Positions 2,931-13,542 of a stretch of DNA of 64,000 nucleotides are shown piece after piece. Each line of letters opens with the position of its first letter. Position 1 is the stretch's first letter. The notes beneath the pieces are model-generated. The model was not told the origin of the DNA and searched no databases. It saw nothing but the letters and a program-made list of their open reading frames with translations. This stretch comes from an uncultured Gammaproteobacteria bacterium (GTDB lineage Bacteria > Pseudomonadota > Gammaproteobacteria > JAURND01): positions 608,001 through 672,000 of the forward strand of contig CAVQQD010000003.1 in assembly GCA_963714975.1 (NCBI GenBank), given 5' to 3'. The position numbers and the translations under genes were made by a program.

Positions 2931-3005
2931 GTGTGAAAAAAGCTGTGGGTGATAATATGGGAAACAAGAATGTTTCCCATATTTCATCCATCAGCTTATT
3001 CACAC
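2931..3005. repeat. Long imperfect hairpin with DnaA-box-like nonamers in the stem
   Basis: Perfect core aatatgggaaaca-agaa-tgtttcccatatt; outer arms gtgtgaaaaaagctg / cagcttattcacac. Confidence 0.7.
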
Positions 3006-3061
3006 GCCTCGAAGAGTCGTCCACAACTCCTTATACCTCCTTATACCTCCCTTTTATGACT

Positions 3062-3208
3062 CTATTCTTGAACTACCAAAAAAAACGGCCATCTGGCGCT
3101 GCATGAATCACAGCTACTGTTGCTGCTGGTATGGTGCAAGCAATTCCAAAACCGATTGTTGCTAATGGCAAAATGAGCATGGAGTAGGAAATATCTTCAT
3201 TGACTGAC
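3062..3208 (-). pseudogene. Fragment of a DHA2-type MFS transporter
   Basis: Minus strand reads SYSMLILPLATIGFGIACTIPAATVAVIHAAPDGR; no full-length ORF. Confidence 0.5.
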
Positions 3209-3321
3209 TGCGGGATTTTTGCGGGATTAAGTCCGACATTGTTATACATTTTACGCCAAATTGTAGTGGACGTCCCAGTTAAAGTTATGTAAAATCAATG
3301 GCTTAAGAAGCATAAGCCGGT

Positions 3322-3365
3322 TTCGTAATCAGTAGGTCGGAGGTTCGACTCCTCTCTTCGGCACC
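3322..3365 (+). mobile_element. 3' half of tRNA-Thr(CGT), probable attR of an integrated island
   Basis: ttCGTaatcagtaggtcggaGGTTCGACTCCtctcttcggcacc gives anticodon loop, T-arm and acceptor 3' strand; no D-arm or 5' acceptor upstream; IHF consensus aatcaatggctta (3293-3305) and tandem tgcgggatt (3209, 3220) upstream. Confidence 0.8.
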
Positions 3366-3431
3366 GAAGAATCTTCGATCGCAGGAGCAGATTCGTCTGC
3401 CAACTTGCGTAGGCTGGCCTCCTGAAAGCTA

Positions 3432-3470
3432 CGAGCACGGCGGGTTGCCCGCGCGGCAGGACCCCGTAGG
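3432..3470 (+). repeat. 39-bp GC-rich dispersed hairpin repeat, copy 1 (copy 2 at 40248-40286)
   Basis: 36/39 identical to 40248-40286. Confidence 0.8.
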
Positions 3471-3768
3471 CGGGCGACGGGACTTCAGTTCAGTTTGAGC
3501 TCACGAAAATTTCAAGAGGAAACTGAAAACTATGTAAACGATTTCTTCAATATCATTGATACCGCATGTGGTGATGACGCGCGCAACATAAAATCCTCGA
3601 CGCTAAAAATTTTTGACCCACTTCTGCTAATGAAAATTGACCCACCTTCTTTCCTAAATAAAGCTCCATAGCCTGTTACTGAGCCACTTTTTCCCATCGC
3701 ATTCCTGACACTTGAGGCTCACTATTTCCTCCAGAAAAAAATAGATATTTCTGGGGAGAATAGTATTC

Positions 3769-4197
3769 ATGACAACGATCCAACAAACCTGTGCACACTG
3801 TCGGGAGATATTTGTAATACGGCGCAATCCTGCTCAGCATTACTGCCATCAAAAAGCCTGTCAGCAGGTTAGGAAAAATTTATGGCGTCAAAACCAGCGG
3901 GCTCAGGATGAAGACTATCGAGAAAATCAATGCCGAGCTAATCAACATTGGCGTAAGAAACATCCCGATTATTGGCGACATTATCGACAGACGCACCCTG
4001 GTTATCAGCAACACAACCGTGAATTACAGAATCAGCGTGACCGAAAAAGGCGCGCCAAACAAGCAATGACACCAAATTCCGTGCTTGCAAATAGCGACGC
4101 GTTGCAGGTTGAAATCACTATTATTTCAGATAGTTATAAAAATTCCGCCTGCTTGCAAAGAGACCACCTTATCGCCAATGGGGTTCGAGTGGGTTAG
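3769..4197 (+). CDS. Hypothetical Cys4 (CxxC...CxxxxC) basic helical protein in the IS21 element
   Basis: CAHC...YCHQKAC, then R/Q-rich HPDYWRHYRQTHPGY helices. Confidence 0.7.
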   Translation: MTTIQQTCAHCREIFVIRRNPAQHYCHQKACQQVRKNLWRQNQRAQDEDYRENQCRANQHWRKKHPDYWRHYRQTHPGYQQHNRELQNQRDRKRRAKQAMTPNSVLANSDALQVEITIISDSYKNSACLQRDHLIANGVRVG

Positions 4198-4207
4198 GCT
4201 TTTAGCC

Positions 4208-5115
4208 ATGACTCCAATTTCTCTTTCATCCCAGGCAACGCAAGCATCCTTCGAGGTGGAGTGGCACTGCTTAGATTTGCGTTACGAACATCTACGCCGA
4301 CGTGAACTAAAAGCTCAACAGCGCTTAATGGTTTCCATTAGTATCCATGGGTTGTTGAGGCCGATCTGGTCGTAGCGGCACCCTCTTCCGCACAATGGGC
4401 GGTGATTGATGGATATGCCCGCATTCACGCTATGCGCCAATTAGGCAAAGATATTATCAGAGCCCAAGTCTGTCCGTTGGCAGCTGATGAGGCTTTGATC
4501 TCGCTTTATCAAGTGGGTCAGTCTCGTCCGTGGGAGCCGTTTGAAGAAGCAACGCTGTTGCAAGAATTAATGAATGGGCATCAGTATTCTCAAGCCCAAT
4601 GTGCGCGCAAGCTGGGTAAAAGTGAAGCATGGGTCAGTCATCGCCTTGAGCTGCTGGCCGACCTGCCTGAATGTATTACCCAAGCTATTTACCAGGGCAC
4701 GTTATCCCATTGGGTCGCCAGCCGAGTGCTGGTACCCTTTGCGCGCGCAAATCTCGATCACGCGCAGCAGTTTGTTGCTTACCTCGCCAAACATCGACGT
4801 TCCAGCCGAGAATGCCGAAGTTTTTATGAACACTACATGCAATCGAGTTCTCAAGTGCGCAAACGGATGATCGAGGAGCCGGCTTTGTTTTTTAAAGCGC
4901 AAACCCAGAGCAGTAGCACAACGCCAACGCAGCAATGGCAGCAGCAGTTCTCCCAGATTCAACACGCATTACACAGGCTCACTACTCTGGTGGGCCAGCT
5001 GTTTTATCCTCAGCAACCGGTCGCAGAGCGTACCGCATTGGAGGGACCCCTCCAGCAAACCCTCCTGGCCATCGAACAATTACAAAGCACCTTACGGACA
5101 TTATGTGATGCATAA
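4208..5115 (+). pseudogene. ParB/Spo0J-like protein, split by a 1-bp frameshift near 4366
   Basis: LMVSISIHGLLRPI + (restored VVVAAPSSAQWAV) IDGYARIHA ParB N-domain; HTH SQAQCARKLGKSEAWVSHRLELL. Confidence 0.8.
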
Positions 5116-5269
5116 AGAGCCCACCGGTCAAACGATACAACAACTGCAGCAAGCAGGTCATAGCTTGCGGGAAATCAGTCGCCTGTTAGGCTTATCGCGT
5201 AATAGCGTGCGCAAGCTTTCTCGACAAAAGCAGGCGGAACCAGCAGAACTAATCCATGCTAAGCATGAA

Positions 5270-6980
5270 CCTAAAAACGGCAGTTGAAGGACTTCCTAAC
5301 CGATAAAACTCTGATCAAATATCTTCCAACAAAGTACCTTTTTTTCAATTTTATGTGGGTGCTGATAAACCAAGTGGTGGCTGCAGCGACTTTCCATTTA
5401 AATATTTTCCTACTGCTTGGCTCAAAATTCGATACCAACATTGATCATGTGTTAACTGCTCCGCATCTTTTTTTAATCCTTTAAAAAATTTCACCACGCG
5501 GCTTAATAACATTTGAACTTTATTAATATTTCCATGCGTGCTGCTGATAACAATGTGTGTTTGTCTTGCATGGACAGTTTGTTTTGCCATAGCATGCAAT
5601 AATAAGGGACGACTCGTAATAGCTTCTAAATGTTTGTCAGGTTCTGCCAGGCGAGCAAATATATTCCACCAATTATAAATAAGAGCAACCACGCGCGACA
5701 TAAAGCGGCAACGCTTCATGTCTTGGGTTGTAAACCCGCTCCAACCCCATTGATTTTTCAATTCATCAAATATATTTTCACTGTCCGCACGATCGCGATA
5801 ATGTTGCGCAATAGTCAGTATTTCATCCGGTAATGAAGTAACTAATACAGCGTATTCATAAACATAGGTTTTATCATCAACCTCACCAAAACATATCTCT
5901 AATTGTTTTGTTCCTGCATGTTGTGAAATAAGCATTAAATTTTTTTGTATTTTTTTTCTCAACACGATGACTCGACGCGATCTTTCCCAACCATCTAATT
6001 TCAATAAGGCATCAGTCCCTTCCCAGCCCTGATCAGCAAAATACCAATCTTGACGAACCATTTTTACTTCTTCTATTAAACGCTTTACATTCTTCGTTGA
6101 TTTCAATTTAAATAAATAGGGTATTTGCTTTTCTTCAGCAATTTTCATCACACCATCTGTACCAAAAGCACAATCACCTCGCAAAAATTGAGGCCACTGT
6201 GCACGCGGAATACGATCTAATAATTCCCATAAATCAGGCGCCGAATAACTGGATGCCATTTGATTACCAGGCTGTACTTCAACATCCAGTACTAAACGTA
6301 AATTGGCGATAAAATAGGAATGATAGGTATGAGAAGGGCGGCCAGGTTTTGTTGGATTATAACCCAATACAGCTCCTTCCTGTTTTCCATAAAGTACTTT
6401 AACTGTGGTATCAACATCTAATATCCATGGCACACTCAGCAATGGCACATAACATTTATTTAAATGTTTTTGTAGCCATACTATTCCAGCTTCTTCTTCC
6501 ATTTTTACAAAGCACGCCGGAGTGAATCTTCACTCACTATTTTTTTAATACCCAATAAATCTGGATTTACTCCATCACAACGCAATGTAGTGATATGAGC
6601 ATAGCGACTATGACCTGCTAAAACAGCTAATAACAGCGTACCTAAAATGTCACGATTTGAAGGAGCGTTGGGACTTACTAATTGCAATGGACAATCTTCA
6701 ACCCAAGGGTCAAATAAATTTCCAATCTTTAAAAATTCAATAAAAAATGCCAATTGTCCTAGCGGAGTTACAGCAGCTTGAGGATCCCATTCCACATAGA
6801 TGCGACCACCAAAAGTATCTAGGGCTAATGAGACATTTTTGGCTAATAAATTTTCTTCTTTTAAGTCTTCTGGCAGTTCACCCGTTGGGTGAAGAGGAGC
6901 CGGAGGTAGTTTCATGCGATTTCCCCTGTAATTTTGTTATAAGGGTCGCATTATCTCATAGTTCAACTGCTTTTTTTAGG
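5270..6980 (-). mobile_element. IS1380-family insertion sequence (1711 bp)
   Basis: IRs cctaaaaacggcagttgaa / cctaaaaaaagcagttgaa (17/19); 5-bp DR ATGAA at 5265-5269 and 6981-6985; CC...GG ends. Confidence 0.85.
5351..6915 (-). pseudogene. IS1380-like DDE transposase, frameshifted near 6505
   Basis: LDVDTT, LRGDCAFG and YRDRADSENIFDELK DDE motifs; ORFs 6505-6915 and 5351-6502 are one base out of register. Confidence 0.8.
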
Positions 6981-8850
6981 ATGAAGAGTATGTGCCCTTG
7001 ATTAAAACATTGATCCCGGAGTGCCGGGGTAACTTAGTACGGGTCCATGAACGATTGACCATAGAATATCAGGCCACCCTGGCTTATAGCACGCTGACTT
7101 GGCTGGTTCGTAAATACCAATTGGGATCGCTACCGCAACGGGTGGGGATATACGAATTTGAACCGGGGCAGGAGATGCAACATGATACCTCTCCTCATCA
7201 AGTATTCCTCGGAGGTCAATGGGTCAAAGCCCAATGTGCTTCGCTCATCTTGGCATTCAGTCGTCAACTGTTTATCCAATATTACCCTTGTTTTACACGC
7301 TTTGAAGCTAAATTTTTTTTGCAGCAAGCCTTATCTTTCATGCAAGGCAGTTGCCGCCGCATGATCATTGACAATACCAGTGTTATTTTATCGGGTGGCG
7401 CTGGCGCGTTCGCCAAGATTGCCCAGGACATGCAATTTTTTAGCCGTTTTTATCGCTTTGAATTTATCGCCCATGCCGTGAATAATCCCAATCGCAAAGG
7501 GCGCATTGAAAGGCCATTTTCCTATGCGGAAAACAATTTTCTAGCAGGGCGTACCTTCGCAGACTGGGAAGATTTAAACCACCAAGCACGTGCATGGTGC
7601 GACACCGTCGCCAATCAAAAACCGAAACGATGTCTGGGAATGGTGGCGCCACAAATAATCTATATCCAGGAAAAACCTTATTTACAACCATTACCTGCGG
7701 TGGCGTTACCGATTTACGAACACCAACAACGTATTGTCGACACTCAAGGTTATGTCAATTGGAATACTAATCGTTATTCAGTACCGGAATCCCATATAGG
7801 CCATACTGTGGACGTTTATCAGTATTTAGATAAGTTGGAAATTTATTATCACCATCGGATCATTGCAAGCCATGAAAGATTGCTAGGCGTACAGCACCAG
7901 CGGTCTATCCAAAAAGGCCATCATGTCCTGTTGCATCGTCGCGCAAATCGCATGGCGCAATGTGAGGCCGAGAAACAATTAACCGGGATAGATGCCCTTT
8001 TAGATGACTATCTCACTGGCATGAGATCGCAGGTTCGTGGCCGTGGCGCTTGGGCATTCAGGCGCCTACTCCATCTCCAACGCCTCTATCCCAAAGAACC
8101 TTTTTTAATGGCCATCCGACAAGCCAAACAGTATGGGCTTTATGATCTTGTTCGTCTTGAAAAGCTCATCATTCGCTGTGTGGCCGGAGAATTTTTTAAT
8201 TTATCAAATGAGGAATCCTGTCGATGTTAGAACAGCTTCAACAACTTACCGATCAACTGAAGTTACGAGGTATGGCAGCCCATCTTGCACCCGCCATTGA
8301 GGCCGCACAGAAAAATCAAACAGCATTCCAAGAGATTTTACTCCAACTCCTGGAGGCTGAAGCACTGGATCGCCAAACCCGAGCCTTGGCCAGTCGTACA
8401 CGAAAAGCCAAAATGCCGTGGACCTGGACCTTAGATACCTTTCCCTTTCAGCAACAACCTGGCGTGAGTAAAACCCAAGTACTCTCGCTAGCAAAACTCG
8501 ATTTTATTAAGGGCAATGAAAATATTGTATTTATCGGCAAACCGGGTGTGGGGAAAACTGGTTTAGCCCTTGGGTTACTCAAGGCGGCACTACAACAAGG
8601 ATATCGATGTCGGTTCTACTCTGCCTTAGATTTATTGAATGATCTGTATGCCTCTTTAGCAGACCGAAGCACTTCCAGCTTACTCAAAAGCGTGGCGAAA
8701 TATGATTTATTAGTGATTGATTAATGTTGACACCTCATTAATGTGGAGTAGTTTTCATATCTATTTGAAAATAAAAAATTTATTTCTATATCGCTCCACA
8801 TTAATAATAGTAATAGCATTGGAATTCTCATTTCAACAAAGGAGATTCTA

Positions 8851-10107
8851 ATGCTTAAAAATTTTTTCCCAAAAGCTTATCAACGCTATTTGTCTTTACC
8901 CGTGTTGGGGCCAATACTGGATGAATTTACAATATTTCTCACCCAATTAGGTTATCCCCGTCATGTAGTACGTGCTCGTTTCTATGTAATTCCAGCAATT
9001 GATCAACATCTGCGAACACGCAAATGTTATTCAATCCAAGATATTACTCGAGACGCACTGCTAGCTTGTGCACCGCCGCTAGGTCATTCCCAAGAAGATA
9101 TCCATTCGGCTGCCACAGTAAACTTATTAGAACGCTATTTTGATGAAAAAAGAGTACTCCTTCCGCCGGAACCACTTAGTCCCATCGAAGAAAAAGTGAA
9201 TGAATATCGTCGTTATTTGCAACAAGTACGCGGGTTTTCACCTTCGACTACCAAGCATCACTGCTTCACAATATCACAATTTCTGGTTCGTTTTAATAAG
9301 TGTGGAGGATTATCCTATCTGGCAAAATTAACATTACAAGACATCGAAGATTTTATACGTGATCGTGGTAATAAATTAAAACGAACTTCATTACAACATA
9401 CCATTGCTCATCTTCGAGCATTTCTGCGTTTCCTTATCATATACGGTGAAGTTCCAAGAGGGCTGGATAGTCAAATCGATACGCCACGTATTTATCGTGA
9501 AGAACAATTCCCTCGTTCTCTTGACTGGGAAATTGTATGTTCTCTTTTAGCAATCCATCGATCAATCAACACCAATAGGAAAGCGAGATTATGCAATACT
9601 GTTACTTATCACAACCTACGGATTACGGGCAAGTGAAATTGTTTCTTTAAAATTAGAAGATATTGATTGGAGAAAAAATCACTATATAAATATTTCAACG
9701 TAAAACAAGTACACAACTTATACTACCACTAACTGAACAATGTAGGGGAGAGTATTTTAGATCATACCTTCGTCAAGGACGTCCTTCTGTTCCTTTTCGA
9801 GAGATATTTGTTCGGCACCGTGCACCCTCCGGGTACCTTAAAATCTAGCTGCAGTAACATGAGGCTTTTCAGTGTATCGGTCTAGACGATAGCAATCTAT
9901 CCATTTCATTTCAAAGGTACTCATTGTCTTCGCCATTCCTATGCAGTTCATTTACTTCGACAAGGCACATCGCTTAAAGACAATCGGCAGATACTATTAG
10001 GTCATCGTAAATTTTGAAAGTACTTGTGTTTATTTGCGATTGAATATAGAAGATCTCCGTAAAGAATTCCACTTAAGTATCTACCAAGTTTATCTACTAT
10101 TAAATGA
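8851..10107 (+). pseudogene. RIT tyrosine recombinase A, frameshifted (end approximate)
   Basis: Shifted-frame RDYAILLLITTYGLRASEI and HCLRHSYAVHLLRQG motifs. Confidence 0.75.
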
Positions 10108-10119
10108 AGGAGTTTAATC

Positions 10120-11139
10120 ATGAAAAACATAGACTATTCTTTTATCGTCTCCAATGGGTTTAATCATTATACATTATCTTAATCTCAAGCAATGTCTCTC
10201 GGTCGCCAGTATGTAGAAGTGAACGTGAGAATTTTCTAAAATCCTTGATAAATTCTTATGCGATACTAAGCAAAGTGATCTTGCAGTAGAAAGTTTTACT
10301 GCATGGTGCTATGACCCTGCAACAAATAAATGCATCAGGGGTTCGACGTAATCATATGCGTGCATGTGCGTAATCTATGTCTTTATCGTCAACGAACAGA
10401 ACCTACTTGTTTTATTCCAGATACATCTACAATTTCCAGCCGCTACATCAAACTATTCAACCACATATTTTCACTGAAGACTGAAATTATTCAGACTATT
10501 CAATGCGATAAAAGAACTTGAATCCTGCGTGCAGATCACCTTATGACGGCAAGAAAATTTTAGGCTTGGCATCTCGTATTACTTTATACGAGCAGGATTG
10601 CGGCAGTGGAGAGCTGAGTAAAATTAACAATTAGGAGATTATAACTGCCGTTAACCATACTATACTAATTCGCGCATCTAAGTTTCACAAATCGCGTCTG
10701 ATTCCTTTGTCAGCAGGATGGATGGAATGAAATAGAAACGATTATCTAAAAATACGACAGCGCCATATTAAGTTTCCTGTCTCGAAGGAATCTTCCATTA
10801 CATTTGGAATAATCGCATAATAATAAAGCATGGGATCATTATAGCAGGCACGACGGACTGTGATATAATCTTCCACTCTCTTTTTCAAATGCCAATATTC
10901 GTACAGTCGATGGAGATCAACCACCGCGTTAAATGATTTTAGACATTCTTTTGCGGTACTTGGCACTCTCTGAACGTTGGTATGAAGAAGGCGAAAATGT
11001 GCAAGCAAAATTGCCCATACTATCTACTTACATGGGACATTTTTCTATCCTATCAACACAGTATTACTTGCGCTACATCGAAGAAGTGGTAAGTACTGCC
11101 AGTAAACGTTTTGAAAAGCATTATGGGTCACTAGTATAA
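10120..11139 (+). pseudogene. RIT tyrosine recombinase B, heavily frameshifted
   Basis: KFHKSRLIPLS, DFRHSFAV and RWYEEGENVQAKLPILSTYMGH..STQYYL fragments. Confidence 0.75.
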
Positions 11140-11166
11140 TATGAATTAAATATGCGAGATGGTAAT

Positions 11167-12183
11167 ATGAAAATAACTACAAAAAACAAATATATTATCT
11201 TATGGTTTGAAAGATTTTTTTGCTGATTATTTACCTAGCTTACGTGGAATGAGTCCACATACAATACATAGTTATCGTGATTGTTTGGCATATTATTGAG
11301 ATATATTGCTACGCAAAAATAATGTCCCGTAACAAAAATAGATATAAAGAATTTTAATGCCAAAAAAATCATTGAATTTTTGCAAATGTTAGAGGATAAG
11401 CGTCAAAATAGTGCCAGCACCAGTAATATTAGATTATCTGCCATACATGTTTTTTTTCGATACCTTGCAGTAAAAATCCAGAAAAAATAGAACACTGTCA
11501 ACAAATTTTAGCTGTACCATTCAAGCGTACTAGTTCTCGCATTGTAGAATATTTAGAATATGAAGAAATTCAAGCTGTATTTTTCAGCAGTTGACCGGTC
11601 AAATGAAGATGGAAAACGTGATTACATTTTACTGGTTACTATGTTCAATACCGGTGCGAGAGTGCAAGAAATTCTTAATTTGCGATTGAATGATTTGCAG
11701 CTTGTTAAACCTTATCAAGTACGTTTAATTGGAAAAGGTCGCAAAGAAAGATTATGTCCTCTTTGGCCGCAAACAGCACAGTTATTGCAAGAATTAATCG
11801 CTACACGTAATAGTACACAGCCAGAAGAACATGTGTTTCTAAATCATCAAAAACAACCATTCACGCGTTTCGGTGTACGTTATTACTAACAAAATACTGT
11901 GATTTAGCCAGAAAAAGCACATTAACACTGTTAGGGAAAAGATTGCATCCACATAGTATGCGTCATAGCACTGCTATTCACCTTCTCAAATCCGGAGTAG
12001 ATATAGTCACTATTAGTCATTGGTTAGGTCATGCCGACATTAATACAACAAATCGCTAATGCAAGCGTTGATCTTGATATGAAGCGTGAAGCTATTAATA
12101 AGAGCGCTATAGATAAAAAAATTCAACACAAAGCAATTTGGCGTTCCGATGCTTCTATTTTAACGTGGTTAGAATCCTTATAG
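11167..12183 (+). pseudogene. RIT tyrosine recombinase C, frameshifted; catalytic Tyr codon is TAA
   Basis: RDYILLVTMFNTGARVQEI, GKGRKER, HPHSMRHSTAIHLLKSGVDI..WLGHADINTTNR*. Confidence 0.8.
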
Positions 12184-12630
12184 ATAATTATTAATGTGGA
12201 GTAATTTTTTAAATAGCCGTATAATTTATGGAGAATATGCTGTTACTCCACATTAATAAAGTCTCAACATTAATCCATGTATGTGGAGCTCCACATAAAT
12301 TGATGAATTAGGGTATTTAACGTTGACACCCGAACAAGTAAATATTTTTTTTAAATTAATCGATATGCGTTATCAAAAAAAATCCACTCTCATCACAACC
12401 AATTTAGATTATCCCCAATGGTATGACATCTTTAAAAATCCACAACTCGTCGATGCCATGCTGGATCGCTTTCAGCACCATTGCGTGACCCTGCGCATTG
12501 ATGGATCCAGCCTCAGAAAATCTGCCTAATCCACCGGCACCCTAGAGCAAGGTCTTCATCCAGGACCGCCGGGCTAGGCGTGCCCCACCCCTAGGCTTAA
12601 AGTTACCCCGCCAAATAATACGAGAGGTCT

Positions 12631-12676
12631 CCGCCGAGTAAGCACGCCGCATTGCTGCGGCGTGCTTACTCGGCGG
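12631..12676. repeat. Perfect 21-bp-stem hairpin in the 3' non-coding region of the IS21 element
   Basis: ccgccgagtaagcacgccgca-ttgc-tgcggcgtgcttactcggcgg. Confidence 0.9.
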
Positions 12677-13113
12677 CCCACAAGGCGCAACAACTATTTT
12701 TTAATTAAATAGCTATTGTCATCTAAAATCATCTTTGGCAGTGACCTTGACTGGAGGGGCACTTCGAATGGCGGTGATGACGGGTTTTACAAGGAAATAA
12801 CTACTTATTCTTGCGCATTGAGTGGGTCAATTTTTATTAGCAGAAGTGGGTCAAAAATTTTTAGCGTCGAGGAAAATTTCCCCTGCAGTGGTAGCCGATA
12901 AACTTAAAAATCATGAGGTTGCGAAAACAGTGATGAGTAAGGTCCGGCGCAAACTGAACCAAAATGCTAGGGCAGGGGATATCCCTAGTATATCGATATA
13001 TGATAAGGAAGCCCCATCCAAAATCCCAATAATGAATAAAACGAAAAGAAGGAGCAGAACAAAATTTAGAACCACCTCATTAAAGAATCACATCAGTCAC
13101 TGCCTACTCTCAT

Positions 13114-13353
13114 TTATTGTGCTATCCGCTTAAATCGTGGAACGCTATTCCCTTCATAAGTAACATTTTCGGCAAACATTGCTTTGGGTCTAACCCAGAC
13201 TTGATTGCTTCCAAACGTGTCACATTCATACAATGCTTTATAAATAACCATTTCTTCATGGGTTTCTCTGTGACGTGCAACACCAATGACCTCATATAGT
13301 TTTCCAGTTTTATAATGCTGATATTTCCCACAGGAGATATCTTCTACAGTCAT
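13114..13353 (-). CDS. DUF1653-family protein
   Basis: GKYQHYKTGKLYEVIGVARH.ETHEEMVIYKALY...WVRPKAMF signature. Confidence 0.85.
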   Translation of the reverse strand: MTVEDISCGKYQHYKTGKLYEVIGVARHRETHEEMVIYKALYECDTFGSNQVWVRPKAMFAENVTYEGNSVPRFKRIAQ

Positions 13354-13542
13354 AGAAATCCCGAGCGTATTCAACTAACCATCTCTTCCACAGGTAAAGG
13401 AATGATCAGAATTTACTAAACAGGATGCACATACAGAAGGTTCTGTTCGGTAACCTGGGCCACTGGCCCACCGTAAGTTGTATTTGAATTGAGGATTGGA
13501 CGTTGGATATGGTGATGAGGCTGAAGAGTCAATAATCAAGTG

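Follow-up and report, generated by a model that had tools for sequence, protein, structure and literature searches.

Insertion sequences (ISs) of the IS21 type represent a structural model for transposase–ATPase machines and are common vehicles of resistance genes. Usually they are about 2–2.6 kb long, and their ends start with TG (the TG rule). Phage Mu combines MuA and MuB with an internal enhancer, operator sites and a repressor, and IS1 encodes InsA, a small zinc-finger regulator, 5' of its transposase. Among ParB-type proteins, the site of Noc belongs to the 14–16 bp length class, and in Bacillus subtilis the spo0J gene contains parS within itself. According to a 2023 survey, IS21 has two genes and no target selector has been reported for it; the survey counts istA and istB among the relatives of TnsB and TnsC. 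PMC13139386 presents a canonical istA–istB pair beside a resistance gene, and the matching passages of PMC12486865, devoted to IS21 structures, do not mention subgroups. The present work deals with a 64,000-nucleotide stretch from an uncultured Gammaproteobacteria bacterium (assembly GCA_963714975.1, contig CAVQQD010000003.1, positions 608,001–672,000 of the forward strand; hereafter the window). It carries at 3595–12872 an IS21-type element in which two additional genes, for a small zinc-ribbon protein and for a ParB-like protein, precede istA and istB. Judging from the sequence comparisons, we cautiously favour the reading that it is a decayed member of a widespread four-gene IS21 lineage, the ParB-like and zinc-ribbon proteins of which act in cis on the element itself. 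What is new here is a conserved palindrome within the ParB-like gene and three direct repeats within the zinc-ribbon gene.

The gross structure outlined in the initial annotation was reproduced. One pair of inverted ends (3594–3645 and 12822–12873; 52 nt, 98% complementary), both abutting the 5-bp target-site duplication AAAAT, encloses the unit; the two extra genes are co-oriented with istA and lie before it, the ParB-like one overlapping the istA start (5105, versus a stop codon at 5113–5115), and the unit measures about 4.0 kb after subtraction of two nested inserts. The same annotation called such elements little described, and in the full-text literature, searched through listings and abstracts (with ISfinder and TnCentral outside the scope), we found no published description of a four-gene element or subgroup of this kind.

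To see how the gene set behaves among relatives, an IstA alignment was scanned against one genome per species, which matched 297 stretches and yielded 203 relatives; the best 80 (38–55% identity) were kept. They span at least 9 phyla, including Pseudomonadota, Thermodesulfobacteriota, Myxococcota, Acidobacteriota, Actinomycetota, Verrucomicrobiota, Planctomycetota, Chloroflexota and Gemmatimonadota. A ParB-like sequence is located immediately 5' of istA in 77 of these 80 loci (tblastn), and in the other three (L017, L066, L074) istA begins 3–326 nt from a contig end, so that close istA relatives do not lack the upstream genes. Wherever room allows, a zinc-ribbon open reading frame (ORF) precedes the ParB-like gene in the related loci.

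The initial annotation had also proposed to check co-phylogeny. In the IstA tree (FastTree, 117 distinct rows, without the G046 loci L180 and L186; deep placements, above all those of long rows, are provisional), the ParB-bearing elements comprise one clade of 86 rows with support 90, the inner 83 rows having support 100. Eight canonical rows with neither extra gene fall outside this clade, and the zinc-ribbon elements devoid of ParB group apart from it, 20 rows as a clade of their own and two more as long branches. Three rows of the ParB clade labelled as possessing the Cys-rich gene without ParB (L031, L053, L070) were rejected as label artefacts, since tblastn detects ParB in all three. Pairwise distances of IstA and ParB correlate at r = 0.91 over 44 distinct elements, those of IstA and the zinc-ribbon protein at 0.55, and those of ParB and the zinc-ribbon protein at 0.64 (none of 999 permutations reached the observed value in any of the three comparisons); these values are descriptive only, the rows being related. 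Three canonical plasmid IS21 elements carry only istA and istB. The ParB-like gene is thus co-inherited strictly with one IstA clade.

The zinc-ribbon gene is associated more broadly, with several IS21 lineages. A scan of metagenome contigs started from a four-row zinc-ribbon alignment gave at least 597 stretches and at least 281 relatives, of which 80 were kept. Among these, istA follows 3' of the zinc-ribbon gene in all 47 loci with at least 1800 nt downstream and istB is present in 25 of the 26 loci with at least 3200 nt, while ParB occurs in only 40 of the 64 loci with at least 700 nt. The ParB-less loci encode rve-positive IstA proteins with only 25–29% identity to our IstA queries, and their ParB slot is either empty (L164) or occupied by another gene: in L099 (1092–1505) a 137-aa ORF with a weak HTH_36 match lies between the zinc-ribbon gene and istA and overlaps the istA start, which suggests a non-orthologous replacement of the second gene. 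In some ParB clades the first slot is filled by a Cys-rich ORF that escapes the profile (12 rows designated P_noC; for example, L029 and L073). The claim that the extra genes define an IS21 subgroup needs correction for the zinc-ribbon gene, which extends beyond this subgroup and is also found in ParB-less IS21 lineages.

The four genes move as one between the inverted ends. Several units are multicopy with 97–100% identity between the copies: the L023 type (4086 bp, 7 copies), the L088 type (3729 bp, 5 copies), the L031/L036 type (4109 bp) and the L029 type (4753 bp), and intact copies of the family span 3.7–4.8 kb. The copies differ in their 5–8 bp target duplications (CCCTAGTG, TTACAAAG, CTCTTTAG, GGCTG, CGCTCGAA, GTCGATC), and a duplication was not seen for the copy L030. 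Comparison of independent copies shows no motif common to their duplications or flanking sequences.

Two classes of DNA site are under selection inside the two extra genes. The first is a perfect palindrome of 14–16 bp, spelled by the codons for the motif P-[LFM]-x-R-x-[NKM], which is conserved in the ParB-like protein. In most elements it reads TTGGCGCGCGCCAA, and of the 47 ParB ORFs with xARAx, 44 have complementary bases at both free wobble pairs. The palindrome variants (Table) are preserved by paired changes that alter amino acids, and the palindrome begins exactly 90 nt (87 in one clade) past the recognition-helix motif SWVSxR. The helix residue could be scored by patterns against the palindrome in 39 of 67 ORFs, one of which represents a mis-picked palindrome: residue x is R in all 34 ORFs with G at palindrome position 3, and in the four departures C at this position goes with Y, and T with H, L or V. 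The window genome (G000) contains one palindrome site and the L023 genome (G061) seven, exactly at its seven element copies; elsewhere in these two genomes the palindrome is absent.

The second class is represented by direct repeats, three of which are located at the 3' end of the zinc-ribbon gene in intact relatives, versus two in the window copy. They are of an AT type, GATTGCAAAGA(T/G)GGACG, spaced by 81 and then 68–72 nt, or of a GC type, GCGCGAGACGC, spaced by 69 and 69 nt; each element has a single cluster on one strand, 0.4–0.85 kb from the left end. The first two copies translate as [LI]AK[MST]D[AE]. The third lies past the stop codon or out of frame in 7 of 9 AT-type elements and in further loci, and its DNA is still conserved. 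Codon use is strongly biased in the 134 in-frame repeat copies scored, which come from 72 of 87 distinct genes; the reference is the remainder of these genes: Ala is GCA in 130 of 134 repeat copies versus 163 of 726 elsewhere, Lys is AAG in 127 versus 409 of 868, Asp is GAC in 126 (with 7 GAT and 1 AAC) versus 248 of 596, and the first codon of every copy is NTT. The repeats are thus conserved at synonymous sites. In 24 of 36 distinct elements the third repeat is placed 53–55 nt 5' of the ParB-like ATG, and in L023 it is followed by a promoter-like TAGCCA-18-TACAAT. The ParB-less elements carry an identical repeat sequence. Rfam gave no match in window positions 3000–13500, hence an RNA-family explanation of the repeats is unsupported by that library.

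The ParB-like protein is predicted, from both sequence and model, to consist of an N-terminal ParB (Srx-like) domain followed by a ParB helix-turn-helix (HTH). Its profile matches are TIGR00180 (73.6, cut-off 58.45) and HTH_ParB (6e-10), and its structure model has a predicted local distance difference test score (pLDDT) of 93.7. The top PDB matches are B. subtilis ParB-CDP, Noc, KorB and the ParB of Myxococcus xanthus; they cover about 200 residues and have 17–25% identity, with a Foldseek E of 1.5e-10 to 6sdk and 4e-25 in the profile search against PDB. The assumption of the initial annotation that this domain operates as a CTP (cytidine triphosphate)-dependent DNA clamp is doubtful: when the protein is aligned by profile with B. 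subtilis ParB, G-Y-x-R stands opposite GERR, and the 39 aligned family rows show no conservation of the ENLQR segment, which is why we do not assume CTP-dependent clamping. A ParA-like ORF was not found inside the elements examined. The only PADLOC match, of 17.5 bits, was to the ParB-like protein, and defence cargo was rejected on this result.

The zinc-ribbon protein has four Cys residues that are invariant across a 40-row alignment (positions 8, 11, 26 and 31 in the window protein). A word-index protein search recovered only 3 proteins, and the family becomes visible only by a full profile search: among 1.84 billion cluster representatives, 3993 matched at E <= 1e-3; 1393 of these reached E <= 1e-10 and 30 reached E <= 1e-30, and the 150 best matches listed are small proteins of about 100–220 aa. 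Of 401 genomes drawn evenly from the window's phylum, 15 match the profile, the window's own among them. Pfam and NCBIfam contain no model that scores above its cut-off, and the nearest 30 clusters in the protein atlas are all named “hypothetical protein” and have no Pfam family. The structure model, confident for residues 1–100, presents a zinc ribbon with helices; Foldseek against PDB gave no meaningful match (best E = 2.5), and the VIA wide fold search returned generic helices only (Z <= 4.5). A likeness to TniQ was found neither by Pfam and NCBIfam nor by the fold searches, which gave nothing meaningful (all Z < 5).

Under the reading that we favour, a dimer of the ParB-like protein would bind, via its HTH, to the 14–16 bp palindrome inside its own gene; the palindromy itself, the compensatory changes and the Arg-to-G covariation point to this protein as the reader. 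The zinc-ribbon protein may bind to the three direct repeats with which its own gene ends, because these persist without ParB and across IstA classes, the linkage being partly trivial. The last repeat would abut a promoter-like sequence for the parB–istA–istB operon. Both proteins may set the transposase expression and/or help to assemble the transposition complex, without participating in the choice of a host target. Since, in the two genomes searched, the sites occur only in the element's own copies, self-directed regulation or assembly is favoured over target selection, and selection of host targets appears less likely. A more specific version, in which the element possesses a private self-recognition system composed of a ParB-type protein with a single parS-like site and a zinc-ribbon protein with three operator-like repeats, is less probable than not, and we propose it tentatively.

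Several points weigh against this reading. The multicopy L088 type has no palindrome and carries E at the reading residue, hence the palindrome is dispensable for transposition as such. Each site is inside the gene of its proposed reader, so that co-occurrence of site and protein is partly trivial, and the loci are interrelated, so that the counts and tests overstate independence. Residues and bases do not covary for the zinc-ribbon protein and the repeats, and IstA or a host factor could be their reader. Promoter-like sequences were found at background frequency (7 found versus 8.1 expected from shuffled sequence). Finally, the window copy is broken and says nothing on activity. As to the L088 element itself (L088:3541–7269), it is a five-copy Myxococcota element in which the palindrome is lost, Glu replaces the helix Arg and three GC-type repeats are kept.

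TniQ/TnsD acting with TnsC, and MuA–MuB immunity, are models for target selection and immunity, and by analogy the extra proteins might be target selectors or immunity factors that steer or exclude the IstB ATPase. IstB is an established counterpart of TnsC and MuB, both genes belong to the operon and overlap istA, and TniQ-type proteins likewise contain a zinc ribbon. Nevertheless, we regard this as unlikely: the only conserved sites found lie inside the element, with no further occurrence in either host genome searched, and independent insertions have no motif in common in their duplications and flanks. Self-exclusion (immunity) is compatible with the site and flank data. Thus, from the proposal of the initial annotation that the extra genes are dedicated transposition accessories, the target-selection part is disfavoured by sites private to the element. 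About equally improbable, in our opinion, is that IstA reads the direct repeats as an internal transposition enhancer, in the way that MuA reads the Mu enhancer, while the zinc-ribbon protein merely overlaps them or competes as a repressor. The fixed orientation of the repeats at a short distance from the left end, the Mu-transposase C-terminal domain of IstA and the persistence of repeats in ParB-less elements agree with such an enhancer; however, the identical repeat TTGCAAAGATGGACGCGTTA is associated with IstA proteins only 25–29% identical to the IstA queries, which should have resulted in different sites if IstA were the reader, and the repeats are unlike the terminal sub-repeats.

The structural and profile matches to CTP-binding ParB, Noc and KorB, together with one palindromic loading-type site per element, might indicate a true CTP-dependent sliding clamp, which loads at the palindrome, spreads over the element and silences it, as does KorB, or recruits host SMC or ParA; as a consequence, the IS would alter the segregation or structure of its replicon. 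We consider this quite improbable given the G-Y-x-R sequence in place of GERR, with the catalytic Glu missing, the non-conserved ENLQR and the lack of a ParA gene within the elements examined. Least probable of all is an origin of the two genes as passenger cargo, in which case a partition or regulator module captured from a plasmid would travel along and take no part in transposition. RefSeq does call the Desulforapulum homologue a chromosome partitioning protein, and that copy is plasmid-borne; but co-occurrence is complete over at least 9 phyla, the ParB-bearing elements represent one clade and co-diverge tightly with IstA, the ParB-like gene overlaps the istA start, and neither ParA nor a defence-family match was found. 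In this respect (77 of 80 loci, one clade, r = 0.91) the view of the extra genes as dedicated to the element is supported at the family level.

The window element is the sole copy of its sequence in the 2.56-Mb assembly, and it is dead, with a frameshift in the ParB-like gene and one insert in each of istA and istB (Table). The ParB-like gene matches HTH_ParB (9e-10) and KorB (2e-5), D, D and E residues are visible in the istA translation, and the istB pieces match IstB_IS21 at 5e-38 and 1e-17. The end motif and sub-repeats of the left end are shared with L023, L088 and L029, and the AAATTGACCCAC-type sub-repeats are presumed IstA sites. The C-terminal part of the zinc-ribbon protein seems shorter than in intact relatives, and the two repeats left, in differing frames, fit a loss of one repeat unit. 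A programmed frameshift in the ParB-like gene was rejected, since a relative from the same family (G002) is broken at another place and 65 distinct intact ParB ORFs of 260–345 aa exist among the fetched loci.

Table. Features of the window element, and palindrome variants in related elements (positions refer to the window unless a locus is named)
Feature	Position	Strand	Remarks
Target-site duplication, left copy	3590–3594		AAAAT
Left terminal inverted repeat	3595–3645	+	Begins CCTCGACGCT; two sub-repeats of type AAATTGACCCAC
Zinc-ribbon basic protein gene	3769–4197	+	142 aa; CxxC...CxxxxC; no Pfam match
R1/R2-type direct repeat	4085–4104	+	CTTGCAAATAGCGACGCGTT
R3-type direct repeat	4153–4172	+	CTTGCAAAGAGACCACC; 68 nt past the first repeat, different reading frame
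ParB-like gene, N-terminal piece	4208–4375	+	Frameshift, then in-frame TAG
ParB-like gene, rest in second frame	4363–5115	+	DGYxR motif, HTH, C-terminal helices
Perfect 14-bp palindrome	4738–4751		TTTGCGCGCGCAAA; codons F-A-R-A-N (peptide FARAN); sole occurrence in genome; candidate ParB-like binding site
istA, N-terminal HTH part	5105–5269	+	Start overlaps ParB-like stop codon
Nested IS4-like IS (DDE_Tnp_1_4) in istA	5270–6980	-	ATGAA on either side
istA remainder	6981–8230	+	DDE core and Mu-transposase C-terminal barrel; Mu-transpos_C_2 8e-20
istB, N-terminal part (AAA+)	8224–8720	+	Runs to nested insert
Nested insert in istB, ~3.6 kb	about 8721–12298	+	35-nt inverted ends; ATTGAT on either side
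istB, C-terminal part	12299–12529	+	
Perfect 21-bp stem, 4-nt loop	12631–12676		G+C-rich; between istB and right end
Right terminal inverted repeat	12822–12872	-	
Target-site duplication, right copy	12873–12877		AAAAT
Palindrome variant	L023		TTCGCGCGCGCGAA; peptide FARAN
Palindrome variant	L112, L126, L132, L172		ATGGCGCGCGCCAT; peptide MARAM
Palindrome variant	L051, L063, L067		TTGTCSCGSGACAA; peptide LSRDK
Palindrome variant	L133, L147		TTGCCGCGCGGCAA; peptide LPRGN
Palindrome variant	L117		TTTACGCGCGTAAA; peptide FTRVK
Palindrome variant	pHRM2a		TTTATACGTATAAA; peptide FIRIN

In the insert within istA the transposase reads as two ORFs (383 and 136 aa), and the insert end has short matches at 7 other places of the genome. 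The insert within istB is single-copy in this genome, holds several copies of ATTAATGTGGAGTA and contains a tyrosine recombinase only as broken pieces (8851–9636 and 11560–11889). A counterpart of the hairpin at 12631–12676 was not found in the four intact relatives checked.

The G002 element shares with the window copy an identical gene order and the AAATTGACCCA end sub-repeats. It has decayed at other places and carries a group II intron, the reverse transcriptase/maturase of which is located between istA and istB (L013:4061–5377). In the plasmid collection the top IstA match (31.9% identity, E = 1e-62) belongs to pHRM2a of Desulforapulum autotrophicum, the other records listed having at most 26.3% identity. 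The pHRM2a element is apparently intact, with 50-nt inverted ends, and encodes a 157-aa zinc-ribbon ORF, a 307-aa “ParB”, a 500-aa IstA labelled “helix-turn-helix domain-containing protein” and a 246-aa IstB labelled “ATP-binding protein”; a CHC2 zinc-finger ORF represents its fifth gene. Such a fifth gene for a CHC2 (DnaG-type) zinc-finger protein, inside the ends and 3' of istB, is found in some Desulfobacterales (L014:7245–7781, L021:5145–5456, L026:4131–4409).

A second, apparently intact four-gene member is present in the window's own assembly (G000 contig C1, L199:2529–6886, minus strand). Its ends begin GGGCTTCGGCGCT, and its Cys-rich ORF (134 aa) differs in type (CLLKGC...RYCSDEC); a ParB-like protein, a 506-aa IstA and a 241-aa IstB are encoded as well. 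Since the G+C content is about 60% here, while the window looks AT-richer (by eye only), contig C1 may be foreign DNA or a binning admixture.

For IS21, the lineage adds two dedicated putative DNA-binding proteins with candidate sites, which may open a route to how elements of this type control themselves and, judging from sequence, to a ParB–parS pair outside segregation. The candidate sites are maintained within coding sequence by changes that rewrite the protein. If the tentative self-recognition system exists, each copy would mark its own DNA, so that transposase expression, cis-preference or self-immunity would be coupled to the copy number in the cell; as a dedicated accessory or regulatory module it would have no described precedent in IS21, and it would give a ParB–parS pair a new job outside segregation. 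For annotation practice, these elements can now be recognised behind the RefSeq labels “ParB”, “HTH protein”, “ATP-binding protein” and “hypothetical”.

Compared with the known systems, the zinc-ribbon protein resembles InsA of IS1 as a small basic CxxC...CxxC protein encoded by the first gene, 5' of the transposase, but no sequence or fold match was found (Pfam, NCBIfam, PDB), and its presumed sites are internal direct repeats and not terminal ones. With phage Mu the lineage shares a related transposase–ATPase pair and, by analogy, internal oriented repeats near the left end by what may be a promoter region, whereas the extra-slot proteins are unrelated to Mu c or Ner. The ParB-like protein has in common with ParB, Noc and KorB the N-terminal ParB/Srx fold and HTH over about 200 residues; its candidate palindromic site is of the same length class as that of Noc (14–16 bp) and, as in spo0J, lies within the protein's own gene. 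It differs from them in the absence of a ParA partner, in G-Y-x-R for GERR, in another C-terminal helical region and in the location of its gene inside an IS, overlapping the transposase gene.

The closest relatives are the canonical IS21 elements (IS21, IS100, IS5376), with which the lineage shares the IstA architecture of N-terminal HTH, DDE core and Mu-type C-terminal barrel (in L023, Mu-transpos_C_2 at 9e-18 plus HTH matches), the AAA+ helper istB directly 3' (L023 IstB matches NF038214 at 227.8, cut-off 200), inverted ends with two sub-repeats each and target duplications of 5–8 bp. Unlike them, it possesses four genes instead of two, extra internal sites, a larger size of 3.7–4.8 kb and ends that begin with C(C/T)TC in place of TG, and the best NCBIfam match of L023 IstA, NF033546 (IS21), scores 145.5, under the cut-off of 160. 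Because of the two extra conserved genes inside its ends, we file it as a variant IS21 lineage and not as a canonical member.

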